Source: a virus (taxonomy: Duplodnaviria; Heunggongvirae; Uroviricota; Caudoviricetes). From it: a stretch of DNA of 17,208 bases. Where the stretch lies: the IMG/VR virus record IMGVR_UViG_2698536369_000010; one strand, 5' to 3'. Both the position numbers and the translations under genes were made by a program. Numbering within the stretch: the stretch's first letter is position 1; every line of letters starts with the position of its first letter. The notes under the pieces were generated by a model. That model worked only from the letters and a program-made list of their open reading frames with translations. It ran no database searches and had not been told where the DNA came from. Shown here one piece after another: positions 11,030 through 15,313 of this stretch.

Positions 11030-12331
11030 TTAAATCCGAAGTGATGTGACTCTTCCGGTCGGTTTGACAATAGGGAATTGCTTAACGATGAAATAACCTC
11101 CGGCATCATTCGGGTGATCATTGCCAGATTTTTTATCAGGCTCCCCCTTATCATCCCAGACCTGTTGCTCCAGAGATTCGGCATATACCGGACAACGCTT
11201 CACATTAACTTTATAGCGACGCTCACCATTGGCATTGCAGAACATTGCATTCATTGAGTTAACGCGATCTTTTACTGGCGGGTTCGAGCTGTTCACCACA
11301 ACGTTAAAACCTGCCTGCTTAAGCTGGGCTATATCCGTCGTACTTGCGTTACTTGATTTTCTGGAATCTCCGGAAGCATCTGGATAAATATAAATCTCCC
11401 TCACTTTCCGGTAATCATGCCCGTCATACAGCCAGAAGCGTTCTTTAATGAGGCGGATCATATCCGGCGTATCGTAGGCATTGATGATTTCAGTTACCGC
11501 ACATGGAAGCCCCAAACGCAGCACATGGACGATTCCCGCCATCTTTCCAACGTTAAAATCCATCCCAATATAAATCGGCTCCCCTGGCTGCTCCACTTCT
11601 TCGCAATTATTCAGTTTCCGGTCAAACTGATGGTAAACAGTACCACTTGTCAGGTTAGTAAACCGTCCTAGAAGATAGGCTTTAATCAGCTCTGGAGGGT
11701 ATGATTCAAGAAGTGAAGGAATGTAATCTGCTGGCAGGTTCTTTTCATTATCGAAAGTAGATGCCTGCACCAGACCATACAGTGAGGCCAGCTCTGTTTT
11801 TTCACGCACGGCTTTAACAAACTGCTCGTAGACAAATTTGAATCCTTCCGGCGTGGTTGTAACGTCAATACCGTTGCGAAGTCCATCAATCTTATAACGC
11901 ATACGCGCAATTATCTTGCGCCACGCCGTTCTGGCTTTTTCCTTCGGCAAAATGTCCAGTTCATCCACCAGCGCATTACCAATTTTGAAACCGACGATCG
12001 TTTGTGGCTTCTCCATCGATCTGCAGATAGTGGTTCCCCGATACTGGCGTCCGTAATAAAAGTGAACCTCTTTATTTCCCTCATTAATTTTTACGTTCAA
12101 TCCCCAGTCAGCAGCAACTTCTTCCACTGTAGGGTAAAAAATATCGCGAATTTGGGGATACGTTGGCGCAAAATATCCCTGATTTATACCTGGATGCTCC
12201 CAAATCCCCTTGCATATGCCGCCACACCCAACCCATGTTTTGCCCGAGCCAAAACCAGCAATATAGGCTTTAAATTTATGGGGCATTGAAAGAAATCGCG
12301 CCTGAGGCACATTAAGCGTCGGAGAGATCAT
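11030..12331 (-). CDS. Terminase large subunit (about 433 aa from ATG at 12331)
   Basis: Walker A motif GFGSGKT near the N-terminus and acidic nuclease-type motifs (IGMDFN, IYPDASGDS) in the C-terminal half. AAGGAG SD 8 nt upstream of the preferred ATG; the track start is an upstream GTG. Confidence 0.9.
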   Translation of the reverse strand: MISPTLNVPQARFLSMPHKFKAYIAGFGSGKTWVGCGGICKGIWEHPGINQGYFAPTYPQIRDIFYPTVEEVAADWGLNVKINEGNKEVHFYYGRQYRGTTICRSMEKPQTIVGFKIGNALVDELDILPKEKARTAWRKIIARMRYKIDGLRNGIDVTTTPEGFKFVYEQFVKAVREKTELASLYGLVQASTFDNEKNLPADYIPSLLESYPPELIKAYLLGRFTNLTSGTVYHQFDRKLNNCEEVEQPGEPIYIGMDFNVGKMAGIVHVLRLGLPCAVTEIINAYDTPDMIRLIKERFWLYDGHDYRKVREIYIYPDASGDSRKSSNASTTDIAQLKQAGFNVVVNSSNPPVKDRVNSMNAMFCNANGERRYKVNVKRCPVYAESLEQQVWDDKGEPDKKSGNDHPNDAGGYFIVKQFPIVKPTGRVTSLRI

Positions 12332-13406
12332 CTTCATCACTCCTTAATCTGGCATCAACCACATTAATATTGATCGCCACAGGCTGGGGATGTTCATTAT
12401 CCTCCACCGTTTCGATCTCTTTGCGCAGCTTCTGGTTCTCTATTCTGCGCCGTTCAATTTCCAGTTCCTGTAGCCGCTTATCTGCACATAATGCCCCGCC
12501 AGCAGAAAGCAAACGCAACAATTCACGCCGGGCGGCAGCCTTATCCTCCAGCAGGATCTCAACACCGTATTTTCCGAGCTTTGACCCTGCATATAATTGC
12601 CGCGCATCCCCATCAAGCAGTGTGGTATCAGCCATATAAAGCTGTCCTGTTCCCTCACCGCAGCACTTCGGGCAATCAGGATTGGGTATGGCGTTATCAA
12701 CAAAGCCGAGGCCTCCATATTCCGGCTCGGGTTTACCATCTCTGGAGGCCTGTGCCGCAGCCTTATCGAATTCTGCAATATCACGCCACTGGTAGAGATG
12801 ATTCTCGCCCCAGCAATAACGGCAGTTAACACGGCGAAATTGTGCCAACTGATTGGGGTCGGCCTGGACAATGGCCATCAACTGGCTCACCAGTAAATCC
12901 AGGTCTGCGGTATAGCGTTTCTGGTACTGATTGCGGAAGTAGCTGATAGCACGATAAACCCTGGCATTTCTAAGCATACGGCTGGCGTTGCTGTTAGCTG
13001 TCGCACCTTGCCCCTCATAACCAGCCAGTCGGTATGCCTCTGTCGGCTTTTTCCCCTGAGCAACCAACATGGCGAATTTTGCCTGCTGGTCAGAAATACC
13101 GAATTCATCGGGGCAGAACGAAATTTCTTCCGTGTCCCCCTCAATCAGGAGTGCATCGGATACAGCCTTTTTTTTCTGAGATTTTCCGTTCTGCCTTTGC
13201 GCAGTCTGCGCAGTTTTTTTTCGCGCACTTTTTTGCGCAGTTTTGCGCATTTCTTTCTGCGCATTTTTCGGAGTTTTTTTGATGTAACGACGGGCTGTTG
13301 CGTAGTTCAGTCCCCTTGCTTCACACCATGCCACCGGAGATATACCGGAGCGGGTGTATTCAGCAATATACTCCTGCTGCAACGCCCCCCAGTCCGGTCT
13401 GCTCAT
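12312..13406 (-). CDS. Terminase small subunit, atypically long (364 aa)
   Basis: Directly upstream of and overlapping the large terminase. N-terminal HTH-like segment, a Lys/Ala/Gln-rich basic linker, a core resembling small-terminase signatures (ISDQQAKFAMLVAQGKKPTEAYRLAGY...ASRMLRNARV), and an inserted Cys cluster CRYCW...CPKCC. Confidence 0.75.
   Translation of the reverse strand: MSRPDWGALQQEYIAEYTRSGISPVAWCEARGLNYATARRYIKKTPKNAQKEMRKTAQKSARKKTAQTAQRQNGKSQKKKAVSDALLIEGDTEEISFCPDEFGISDQQAKFAMLVAQGKKPTEAYRLAGYEGQGATANSNASRMLRNARVYRAISYFRNQYQKRYTADLDLLVSQLMAIVQADPNQLAQFRRVNCRYCWGENHLYQWRDIAEFDKAAAQASRDGKPEPEYGGLGFVDNAIPNPDCPKCCGEGTGQLYMADTTLLDGDARQLYAGSKLGKYGVEILLEDKAAARRELLRLLSAGGALCADKRLQELEIERRRIENQKLRKEIETVEDNEHPQPVAININVVDARLRSDEDDLSDA
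13167..13280 (-). repeat. Phased array of six GCGCA motifs separated by T/A tracts, inside the terS 5' region
   Basis: Plus-strand GCGCA at 13198, 13207, 13222, 13234, 13244 and 13258, with T runs of 4-8 nt between them. Encodes the basic linker KNAQKEMRKTAQKSARKKTAQTAQ. Confidence 0.6.
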
Positions 13407-13409
13407 CAG

Positions 13410-13661
13410 TTAGTCCTGATTTTTATCCACCCTGAGTAGTTCGCGCAGAGCAAAGGCATCCCCTTTTCTGGCAAGCTTAAACAATGCCGCTCGTAACTCG
13501 GCTTCACCTTTCGCTCTGCCCTTACGGATGGCCGCATAAAAATCTGTCATTGCTTCCCGATTTTCTTTCAGTCGGTTCAGATCAACATCCAGAACGTCAG
13601 CGATTTGTTGTGCAGTCATCCGGCACGCTGCCAGAGACTCGACTTTCGAATACGGAATCAT
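13410..13661 (-). CDS. Small hypothetical protein with HTH-like N-terminus (83 aa)
   Basis: Ends 3 nt before the terS start. GGGGGTG SD upstream of the ATG at 13659-13661. Overlaps the 3' end of the upstream gene by 65 nt in another frame. Confidence 0.4.
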   Translation of the reverse strand: MIPYSKVESLAACRMTAQQIADVLDVDLNRLKENREAMTDFYAAIRKGRAKGEAELRAALFKLARKGDAFALRELLRVDKNQD

Positions 13662-14529
13662 TTGTCACCCCCATTGATATGCAGGGTGTCTTCTTCCTGT
13701 ATTTTTCGTGAAGGATTTTTACTGCAGCGTTGTTCCAGGTGACCTGATGGTGAATGCGTTTATGGCTGGCACCCATCAGTGAGATTTTTACGCACGACGG
13801 CGAATACATGACGGAGTAAAAACTTTTAACGTAGGTTCCGGAATCCAGATACAGCTCGGTCATTCCGCCGCTGTTTTTCTGCGTCTGTTTCTGCCCTAAC
13901 TGGACAGCACCGATCGTCATAAACAATTCACCACAGCGACCGAGATTCGTGTACGTATTCACATCCTCGTTAATGCGCCCCATGAATGAGAACGGTCGAT
14001 CAACCGAACAGATAAAGCTGTTCATTGCCTTGCGTTTCACCCACGAAGCATGGCCGCCATTGTCACCAAGAAAATCCCCGCCCTGCGACATAGCGATGGA
14101 AAGCGCGGGTATTGATTCGTAATACGCCAGCATTTCAGAAAGGATCGCATCCAGTTTCCTTATCGGGAAATAGGCCTGGTCATAGTTGCGATCCACCCGA
14201 AACTGGAACTCGTGATAATCATCATCGAGCTGAATGAAGTATTTACACCCGACCAGTTTTGCCAGGTCGAAACAGGCATTACGGGCGTAAAAAATTGAGC
14301 GGCGATCACCAAAATTATCGGCTTCGTCAAAACGACTGGCAATATCGGCTTTGGAAAATACCAGCACCTGTTCACCAAATTCAGCCATGTACTGATGCCG
14401 TGTCTTATCTTCATCATCAACAACGATAAAAATTTTCCCGGTATAGCCAGCACGACGCAACGTCCGGTAAGTCAGAACTTTGTCCGGTCGCCCGTGAGTC
14501 AGAATAAAGGCGCAAAAATCATCACGCAT
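13597..14529 (-). CDS. Uncharacterized protein with a GT-A-like glycosyltransferase signature (about 310 aa from ATG at 14529)
   Basis: Hydrophobic strand FCAFILTHGRPD, then KIFIVVDDED, then about 60 aa later YFIQLDDDY: the spacing of a GT-A Rossmann-like fold with a DxD motif. Preferred ATG overlaps the ParB-like stop (ATGCGTGA) and follows GGAGGAGGAGG. No predicted membrane segments. Confidence 0.5.
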   Translation of the reverse strand: MRDDFCAFILTHGRPDKVLTYRTLRRAGYTGKIFIVVDDEDKTRHQYMAEFGEQVLVFSKADIASRFDEADNFGDRRSIFYARNACFDLAKLVGCKYFIQLDDDYHEFQFRVDRNYDQAYFPIRKLDAILSEMLAYYESIPALSIAMSQGGDFLGDNGGHASWVKRKAMNSFICSVDRPFSFMGRINEDVNTYTNLGRCGELFMTIGAVQLGQKQTQKNSGGMTELYLDSGTYVKSFYSVMYSPSCVKISLMGASHKRIHHQVTWNNAAVKILHEKYRKKTPCISMGVTNDSVFESRVSGSVPDDCTTNR

Positions 14530-15313
14530 ATTCCTCCTCCTCCCCGCCATGCATGATCTCCACCATGCGCTGCGTCATTCGGACAAATCCATTTTCAATA
14601 GCCTGCTGATAATCAATGATCACCAGCGCCGACTCCTCGAAAAGGCACTGAATTTCAGCGGGGGCATGAGCGTAATAGTCCGCAATTCTGCTGAAATTAA
14701 ACACTGTGTGACGTTCTGCCGCACACAGGAGGAATTTCTCAATATCAGGATCAAGGGACGCCGAACGTATCCGGCTGATCAGCTCCTGAGTTTTCGTATC
14801 GTCGTACAGTTCACTGATATCCGGTTTACCGCCCGACGGCTCATAAACAGGCGTATCAATTTTCGTCGTATACGGCTCCTCCTCATTTCCTGTACCGGGC
14901 AAAACATCCGTCAACAGTTCATCAATTTCTGTCGGGATGAAGCCTGTCAGGGAGACATCAAAATCAGCATTGATTAGGTCCGACAGCTCCATCCGCAACA
15001 GATCTTCATCCCAGCCAGCATTCATCGGCAGGCGATTATCTGCCAGGCGGTACGCCTTTTTCTGCTCATCCGTCAGGCCAGACAGAACAATGACCGGAAC
15101 AGAATCCATTTTGAGCATTTCAGCCGCCATAACACGACCGTGACCCGCAATAATTTCGCCCTTTTCGTCAATCAGCACCGGATTAGTCCAGCCGAATTGC
15201 TTAATACTTTCTACCAGTTGTGCCACCTGCTCAGTACTGTGCGTCCTGGCATTGTGCGCATACGGTGACAATTCTTGTAATGGGCGATAGACTATCTTTA
15301 ATTTCTCGCTCAT
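14522..15313 (-). CDS. ParB/Srx-like nuclease-domain protein (263 aa)
   Basis: N-terminus (YRPLQELSPYAHNARTHSTEQVAQLVESIKQFGWTNPVLIDEKGEIIAGHGRVMAAEMLKMDSVPVIVL) matches the ParB N-terminal pattern seen fused to phage DNA methyltransferases, including the DVSLTGF linker. The C-terminal 150 aa are acidic with no methyltransferase motifs. Position matches ynaK of Rac but identity was not verified. Confidence 0.75.
   Translation of the reverse strand: MSEKLKIVYRPLQELSPYAHNARTHSTEQVAQLVESIKQFGWTNPVLIDEKGEIIAGHGRVMAAEMLKMDSVPVIVLSGLTDEQKKAYRLADNRLPMNAGWDEDLLRMELSDLINADFDVSLTGFIPTEIDELLTDVLPGTGNEEEPYTTKIDTPVYEPSGGKPDISELYDDTKTQELISRIRSASLDPDIEKFLLCAAERHTVFNFSRIADYYAHAPAEIQCLFEESALVIIDYQQAIENGFVRMTQRMVEIMHGGEEEEYA

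Follow-up and report, generated by a model that had tools for sequence, protein, structure and literature searches.

What is the function of a dense cluster of short repeats located inside the small terminase gene (terS) of a Rac-type prophage? The repeats are present in a 17,208-nucleotide stretch of DNA (hereafter the window) from a virus of the Caudoviricetes (IMG/VR record IMGVR_UViG_2698536369_000010). They probably constitute five or six binding sites for an accessory N-terminal helix-turn-helix (HTH) domain of the TerS protein encoded by the same gene, and form the recognition part of the packaging (pac) site of the prophage. The initial annotation of the window had proposed a terminase recognition site, of the pac type, within terS. 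This proposal is supported by frame-independent conservation, codon resampling, a two-way association with the HTH, covariation between motif and protein, and homology to the PacA protein of phage P1, from which we infer that packaging starts at the array. The features on which the argument depends are listed below, with window coordinates followed by positions in the gene.

12312-13406, minus strand: terS, encoding the small terminase subunit of 364 amino acids (Pfam Terminase_2 and phrog_51).
13275-13406, minus strand: codons 1-44 of terS, encoding the accessory N-terminal HTH of PacA type (AlphaFold2, HHalign and PHROG).
13128-13274, minus strand: codons 45-93 of terS, encoding a basic Lys/Gln/Ala-rich linker that is predicted to be flexible; this DNA contains the array.
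12459-13043, minus strand: Terminase_2 core of TerS, residues 122-316, with a CxxC...CxxC insert (Pfam).
13258-13263: hexamer 1, TGCGCA, gene nt 144-149, read as aaT GCG CAg (Asn-Ala-Gln).
13244-13249: hexamer 2, TGCGCA, gene nt 158-163, read in another frame as aTG CGC Aaa (Met-Arg-Lys).
13234-13239: hexamer 3, TGCGCA, gene nt 168-173, read as Thr-Ala-Gln.
13222-13227, minus strand: hexamer 4, a variant that is TGCGCG on the coding strand and CGCGCA on the plus strand, gene nt 180-185, read as Ser-Ala-Arg.
13207-13212: hexamer 5, TGCGCA, gene nt 195-200, read as Thr-Ala-Gln.
13198-13203: hexamer 6, TGCGCA, gene nt 204-209, read as Thr-Ala-Gln.
13168-13280, minus strand: homopolymer runs, of A on the coding strand and of T on the plus strand, that separate and flank the hexamers.

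Six copies of GCGCA start at 13199, 13208, 13223, 13235, 13245 and 13259 on the plus strand, with spacings of 9, 15, 12, 10 and 14 bp. The full repeat unit is the palindromic hexamer TGCGCA, of which five exact copies and one variant make up an array at 13198-13263. At the variant, hexamer 4, many sister haplotypes have the exact TGCGCA. Runs of T lie between or beside the copies (T8 at 13168-75, T8 at 13214-21, T6 at 13229-34, 13241-44, 13264-68, T7 at 13274-80). The whole window has only 11 exact copies of TGCGCA. When the window was simulated 2,000 times with a first-order Markov model, a 70-bp span contained at most four copies of GCGCA (reached in 2 of the 2,000 runs) or three of TGCGCA, as against the six and five observed; the clustering is thus far above chance. 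These positions and simulations bear out the initial description of six GCGCA copies at 9-15 bp that alternate with T runs. The interval given for it, 13160-13285, does enclose the array and its flanking T runs, but the words “periodic” and “phased” were too strong because the spacing is irregular. Across the family, the hexamers are likewise irregularly spaced (7-16 bp) and the A runs are out of helical phase; they may nevertheless help to bend or wrap the DNA. An extended consensus, aaa(c)TGCGCA(a/g)a(a), was derived from 740 sites.

The array occupies gene nt 144-209 of terS (codons 48-70), in the 5′ part of the gene and downstream of the segment that encodes the HTH (codons 1-44). TerS matches Pfam Terminase_2 (PF03592) over residues 122-316 with 36.1 bits against a cut-off of 26.1, and matches phrog_51, “terminase small subunit”, over its full length (6e-75). 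Residues 1-44 are an extra domain that has no counterpart in plain Terminase_2 relatives from Moraxellaceae, Acinetobacter and Collimonas loci. An AlphaFold2 model was built from a shallow alignment (mean pLDDT 52) and was used for domain boundaries only. In this model, the N-terminal domain has three helices (pLDDT 68-79), with the recognition helix running ...L33-N-Y-A-T-A38-R39-R40-Y41-I-K-K44; linker residues 45-93 have pLDDT below 50, and the Terminase_2 segment is confident. DNA sites could readily be accommodated in such a low-confidence linker.

A repeat within a coding sequence may be selected as DNA or as protein. The initial annotation raised the alternative that the repeat reflects protein-level repetition. 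In that case, in-frame tandem duplication would have produced a repetitive basic linker of T-A-Q-K units, with the DNA motif as a by-product. Five of the six copies do encode x-Ala-Gln/Arg, and in the E. coli population the copy number of the array varies from four to six through gain and loss of 9-12 bp units between haplotypes, while single copies decay by one base. Tandem AAQ, GAQ or DAQA repeats in some unrelated viral proteins also yield runs of TGCGCA. Against this, hexamer 2 is out of frame relative to the other five copies in the window, with both its position and its frame preserved in Serratia (locus L003), and the 14- and 10-bp spacings are not multiples of three.

Comparison between genera provides a further test. 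Relatives from Serratia, Superficieibacter and Buttiauxella, with 53-55% protein identity, have four to six TGCGCA copies at the same position in the gene, as does Klebsiella phage 5 LV-2017, the N-terminal domain of which is ~62% identical; the shared zone extends from gene +137 to +209. These relatives read the hexamer in all three frames, as Ala-Gln (xxT GCG CAx), Met/Leu-Arg-x (xTG CGC Axx, for instance Met-Arg-Lys or Leu-Arg-Thr) and Cys-Ala (TGC GCA). The hexamers persist even though no alignment of the linker peptide is possible from one genus to another. The window and Serratia agree at 18 of 18 hexamer positions and 14 of 24 spacer positions (p = 0.002), and at just 24 of 44 third-codon positions of the HTH region. 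When the protein was held fixed and synonymous codons were drawn from the prophage's own usage, the window linker gave a mean of 0.62 copies against the five observed, and none of 20,000 resamplings reached five; the result was equally extreme in every relative. Moreover, as shown below, it is the HTH helix and not the composition of the linker that the motif follows. Taken together, these comparisons indicate that the hexamer is under selection at the level of DNA and not of protein. The comparison of DNA repeat and protein linker in homologues, which the initial annotation had suggested as a check, thus came out in favor of a DNA element, and its protein-level alternative is largely refuted, with very little probability left to it, by the frame-independent conservation, the resampling and the motif-helix covariation.

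The coding sequence of the linker has a further property. A slip of +1 or −1 at any of the A7/A8 runs (window 13168-13280, gene nt 127-239) leads to a stop at 86-88 amino acids in both alternative frames, and the product would be the HTH with a basic tail. The protein library contains many truncated or frameshifted TerS sequences with a 100% identical N-terminus, such as P0123 (87 amino acids), in which the tail corresponds to the predicted shifted frames. Such versions may be true products of slippage or may stem from sequencing errors in homopolymers.

If the array serves the N-terminal HTH, the two should occur together, and this was examined from both directions. An array-first scan of IMG/VR, blind to the domain, searched for three TGCGCA with gaps of 3-10 bp. 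Of its 120 matches, 77 lie directly after a sequence encoding the N-terminal HTH; they represent 65 distinct N-termini, with array starts that range from +130 to +146. A further three are truncated members, and the remainder comprises simple coding tandem repeats, intergenic arrays, and arrays after other TerS-type HTHs. A domain-first scan of IMG/VR determined the top de novo hexamer in the 150 nt after the N-terminal HTH, and at 59 of 60 unique loci this was an array of at least three copies, most commonly five or six. Relatives that lack the domain have no such array: within and near their terS genes, every hexamer stays at or below two to three copies per 80 bp. The two scans show the association to be, to all appearances, obligatory and specific. 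The domain itself is widespread: 190 representative clusters (50% identity) have it, nearly always from residue 1 onward.

Related arrangements were seen in and around this family. Six proteins of 198-565 amino acids (P0142, P0196, P0226, P0228, P0253, P0268) match the N-terminal HTH four to seven times in tandem, at internal positions, and look like repeat proteins built from it. TerS proteins of Erwinia and Izhakiella (L006/L007) belong to another N-terminal HTH family, and there GGGGCA occurs three times directly after the HTH-coding part, followed by inverted TGCCCC/GCCCC. In a second TerS HTH family (IMG/VR L173, L190, L219 and L218), three TGCGCA copies read as [Leu/Val]-Arg-x follow the HTH-coding part. 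A design in which the site is written into the linker may therefore be general among TerS HTH families.

The sequence of the hexamer also changes with that of the recognition helix. TGCGCA arrays follow the helix A38-R39-R40-[Y/H]41 in 77 of 77 cases. Arrays of TGCGAA(T) follow A-K-R-[Y/H] in all four viral contigs concerned and in Klebsiella RothD, Yersinia vB_YenM_30.14 and Providencia PSTCR3, whereas domain-adjacent GATCAT arrays follow A-R-T-R in four of four contigs and in the Shiga toxin (Stx)-converting phages. Even the near-identical helices LNYASARRYIKKP and LNFASAKRYIKKP pair with different hexamers. A protein-level proxy, the dipeptide signature of the linker, was applied to 108 diverse representatives from a library of 1.8 billion proteins: R-R-Y/H helices go with Ala-Gln-rich linkers and K-R-Y helices with Ala-Asn-rich linkers, and many of the apparent exceptions show strings of Leu-Arg-Lys or Cys-Ala, which correspond to the hexamer in another frame. 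This covariation is the pattern expected if the HTH reads the hexamer directly, and we infer on that basis that it binds there.

Two other explanations do not involve TerS binding. The hexamers might be a target of restriction, modification or methylation, be recognized by a host protein, or act as a microhomology hotspot that shuffles the N-terminal HTH between cores. The hexamer is palindromic, as are type II sites; genes for a TET-associated glycosyltransferase (TAGT) and a ParB_N protein lie just upstream; and the boundary between the N-terminal HTH and the core coincides with the array. However, the window has no methyltransferase or restriction gene, clustering of restriction sites is opposite to their usual avoidance, and the covariation of one residue in the TerS helix with the hexamer would be unexplained. 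Recombination, perhaps a side effect, cannot alone maintain exact hexamers in three frames. We consider explanations of this kind very unlikely.

Alternatively, the array might act through nucleic acid structure, with its palindromes forming hairpins that, together with the T runs, act as intrinsic terminators of antisense transcription or that, in the mRNA, adjust the translation of terS. Three terminator-like sites are present on the plus strand (13197-13213, 13234-13249 and 13244-13263), compared with 1.0 ± 1.0 expected, and the RNA folds are somewhat more stable than those of shuffled sequences (z of −2.4 for sense and −2.1 for antisense). Repeated palindromes with T and A runs yield such features automatically, though, and the minimum free energy structures have an ensemble frequency of ~1%. 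No hairpin is conserved: the spacings of 7-16 bp in relatives include “loops” of 1 nt, and T runs are weak in some, such as Serratia. The corresponding position is taken in other phages by TGCGAA and GATCAT arrays, which are not palindromic, and no plus-strand gene is present at the array. The hairpins were accordingly judged to be a by-product of the palindromes, and a structural role to be extremely improbable.

Homology to PacA connects the domain to the mapped pac site of P1. In HHalign, a profile of 14 N-terminal HTH sequences aligned with PacA residues 3-40 at a probability of 92.4% (E 5.1e-7). The N-terminus of the window TerS matches phrog_1711, to which P1 PacA corresponds, at 2.4e-4, and relatives match it down to 3.8e-6; in the reciprocal search, PacA matches phrog_370, the TerS family of the Stx phages, at 1.9e-4. 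Pairwise BLASTP between the TerS N-terminus and PacA is weak alone (E 0.11).

This homology helps to weigh a purely regulatory role, in which the N-terminal HTH would bind the hexamers only to autoregulate terS and terL or to keep TerS close to the gene that encodes it, while packaging would start elsewhere via the Terminase_2 core. Covariation and association demonstrate binding specificity and not function, and relatives without an array make do with just the Terminase_2 core as their TerS. In P1, on the other hand, which is the sole homologous system to have been tested, the hexamers are pac recognition elements, and their synonymous mutation reduces packaging ~9-fold (PMC10028697). Furthermore, the pair of HTH and array was found on terminase small subunits only, fused to at least three unrelated cores. 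As it is restricted to TerS and occurs on unrelated cores, a packaging-specificity module fits better than a gene-specific regulator, and a regulatory role on its own appears unlikely.

Recognition of the array for packaging can be accommodated in a simple model. TerS would oligomerize through its Terminase_2 core, such that several N-terminal HTHs are displayed on basic, flexible tethers ~50 residues long, each able to dock on one TGCGCA. Such tethers would tolerate irregular spacing, whether the 9-15 bp of the window or the wider range of the family, and simultaneous, multivalent binding of many weak sites would mark the phage DNA specifically. The bound complex would then recruit the large subunit, TerL, which would cut nearby and begin a headful packaging series. 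The locus encodes a TerL with Terminase_6N and Terminase_6C domains, a DUF4055 portal and a Mu-F-like protein, and the nearest TerL proteins are those of Jersey-like phages and Dhillonvirus. Both groups are regarded as headful packagers; a literature search on headful packaging in the Jersey-like relatives of this TerL returned nothing relevant, and its sole candidate (phiLLS) concerns a T5-like phage. The type of TerL and its relatives thus only suggest headful packaging in this prophage.

Several observations weigh against a pac site recognized by the N-terminal HTH. The commonest E. coli haplotype has only four exact copies, and constraint on individual hexamers is not detectable in the E. 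coli population, where 5 of 36 hexamer positions and 5 of 30 spacer positions are polymorphic (p = 1.0). Because hexamer positions vary like the spacers, constraint would rest on the array as a redundant whole rather than on each copy, and this is the level at which selection seems to act. About 6 of the 108 distant domain carriers seem to be without an array, as judged by the protein-level proxy. The P1 helix is A-R-R-Y and yet binds TGATCA; residues 39-41 are therefore not the sole determinants of specificity and, judging from this comparison, further residues must contribute. The structural model is weak overall, and the Terminase_2 core has its own putative DNA-binding region, so that the pair of N-terminal HTH and array could be an accessory. 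Some elements of the P1 system were not found: there is no GATC between 12558 and 13580 in the window; the window has a single hexamer cluster, compared with two that flank the cut in P1; no consensus site for integration host factor (IHF) was found near terS; and TerL shows no similarity to P1 PacB by BLASTP (E 0.83). Since there is no GATC within 1 kb, control by Dam would not operate at the array. Finally, no published data on termini or pac sites were found for the carriers vB_YenM_30.14, the vB_EcoS-...R series, SPF_0923, PSTCR3, Rac-SA53 and Stx phages. Literature searches also found nothing that links TGCGCA to a phage terminase or that describes the array or PacA-type HTHs in these TerS families.

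All genes of the window are on the minus strand, with terS directly upstream of terL. Two of its neighbors are as follows.

11030-12340, minus strand: terL, encoding the large terminase (Pfam Terminase_6N, 3.5e-32; Terminase_6C, 7.8e-11).
13410-13661, minus strand: an open reading frame (ORF) of 83 amino acids just upstream of terS (phrog_309, “terminase small subunit”, 8e-23).

TerL is presumed to be the nuclease and motor recruited by TerS. Its nearest phages are of the Jersey-like, Kagunavirus and Dhillonvirus types (40-52%), and a PDB sequence search with TerL gave no match; the same search with TerS gave only a weak match to “Pam5 small terminase” (E 0.13). The 83-residue ORF matches the middle of phrog_309 and has conserved counterparts just upstream of terS in relatives from E. 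coli (L002, L081, L083), Serratia (49%) and Superficieibacter (55%). It may encode an accessory small DNA-binding packaging protein, though its membership in the system is uncertain. Downstream of terS, terL is followed by genes for the DUF4055 portal and the Mu-F-like head protein. Upstream, the 83-residue ORF is followed by genes for the TAGT glycosyltransferase and the ParB_N protein, and by trkG/TrkH, which marks the Rac-type prophage locus. Of 5,426 complete E. coli genomes, 906 have the same terS region, for example with 100% identity in E. coli 13KWH46 (NZ_CP019250); it also turns up, at ~95% identity, in a few phage records.

Three other observations were made in this region. The stretch 12559-13579 is the longest GATC-free stretch of the window (~1 kb, compared with a mean spacing of ~230 bp), and covers the 5′ 850 nt of terS together with the array. 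In the Terminase_2 core, cysteines C195, C198, C245 and C248 are invariant in alignment A1; this CxxC...CxxC pattern in residues 195-248 suggests a zinc-ribbon insert, which would be unusual among small terminases. Directly upstream of the packaging genes, the TAGT (PF20691, 6e-35; “GREB1-related” in RefSeq) and the ParB_N protein are encoded at 13597-15313 on the minus strand. There is no TET/JBP or methyltransferase gene in the window, and the pair may be a DNA-modification or anti-defense module.

How small terminases select viral DNA is still an unresolved question; a review of TerS proteins, in which PacA is not mentioned, stresses that specific pac recognition is unresolved (PMC9611059). 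The N-terminal HTH family is a tractable case, as it combines a small, separable HTH with a defined 6-bp site in four to nine copies and comes with naturally occurring variants of different specificity, set apart by one or two residues in the protein and one or two bases in the DNA. This module is also common, given its occurrence in the E. coli genomes and 190 clusters counted above and in the Stx-converting phages. If the assignment is confirmed, pac sites could be annotated from sequence, and the start points of transduction and lateral transduction could be predicted in E. coli and its relatives. In addition, synonymous recoding, already applied to P1, would make it possible to engineer or inactivate packaging signals for phagemid delivery vectors.

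Among known systems, phage lambda offers a partial parallel. In lambda cosB, three R elements, accompanied by an IHF site, are bound by the winged HTH of gpNu1; an oligomeric small terminase thus uses its N-terminal HTH to bind several short repeats beside the site cut by the large subunit. Lambda differs in having a cos system, 16-bp repeats that lie upstream of Nu1 and not inside it, an HTH of another family, and a TerL of the GpA type. SPP1 (pacL/pacR) and P22, to which the initial annotation compared the array, do carry pac inside the small terminase gene, and in SPP1 multiple TerS contacts flank the cut (PMC9611059). They differ in having neither a hexamer array nor a PacA-type HTH, and TerS binding to their pac sites is weak and non-specific in vitro (PMC9611059). 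A P22-type pac was rejected, as the 22-bp asymmetric pac sequence has no match with up to three mismatches. The fitting comparator is instead P1 pac, with its hexamer repeats inside pacA.

The Stx-converting (933W-like) phages share more with the window. Their TerS (phrog_370) has the same N-terminal HTH at ~40% identity with an array directly after it, but differs in its A-R-T-R helix, its P1-like hexamer with Dam sites, and its coiled-coil core in place of Terminase_2. The array (L098/L099; 234 INPHARED records) comprises four YGATCAT at an exact 12-bp spacing, which encode IDHEIDHKTDHEIDHD, followed ~60 bp further on by two TGCGCAAA. Each YGATCAT copy has a Dam site, and its core is the same as the P1 pac hexamer. 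This array is likely to be the pac site of Stx phages, and no description of it was found in the literature. The ends of some Stx-phage records inside terS were considered as physical DNA ends and rejected, as these records simply start at terL.

Across these phages, the N-terminal HTH and its array accompany a Terminase_2 core with the CxxC...CxxC insert (the window and the Yersinia phage), a shorter Terminase_2 core (Klebsiella phage 5 and the Providencia phage), the coiled-coil phrog_370 core (Stx phages and RothD), and the PacA core. There is an even chance, in our view, that the HTH and its own sites constitute a portable packaging-specificity cassette, grafted onto at least four unrelated TerS cores with unrelated TerLs. 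It would follow an evolvable code, in which a change from Arg to Lys at residue 39 accompanies that from TGCGCA to TGCGAA, and a change from Arg-Tyr to Thr-Arg at residues 40-41 accompanies GATCA. If so, the pac sites of hundreds of enterobacterial prophages, Stx phages included, would be readable from sequence, and a TerS-DNA recognition system with clear sequence specificity would be at hand.

The closest counterpart is the pac site of P1, which spans 161 bp inside pacA and has seven hexamers (PMC10028697). In both systems, the site lies in the 5′ third of the small terminase gene, just after the part encoding the homologous N-terminal HTH, and comprises four to eight copies of a palindromic TG..CA hexamer, in mixed reading frames and at irregular spacings of 7-15 bp. 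In the P1 record, four TGATCA at +194 to +233 come after the HTH-coding part. Further on, the annotated pac cuts at +276 to +285 lie between an IHF site and a second hexamer cluster, and the hexamers are also in mixed reading frames. Klebsiella phage 5 LV-2017 (L094) has a bipartite arrangement as well, with six TGCGCA at gene nt 138-201 and three at 348-391, 152 bp downstream. This 6+3 layout resembles HEX4/HEX3 of P1, with the second cluster inside the part that encodes the Terminase_2 HTH. Differences from P1 concern the hexamer, which is TGCGCA in the window as opposed to the seven TGATCA/G (HEX4 + HEX3) of a 161-162 bp P1 site that has IHF/HU sites and is regulated by Dam, and the TerS core, which is Terminase_2 in the window and the PacA core in P1. 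The feature is therefore best read, from its sequence relationships, as a P1-type pac recognition array that departs from P1 in its hexamer, its single cluster, its lack of Dam and IHF sites, and the unrelated TerL encoded beside it.

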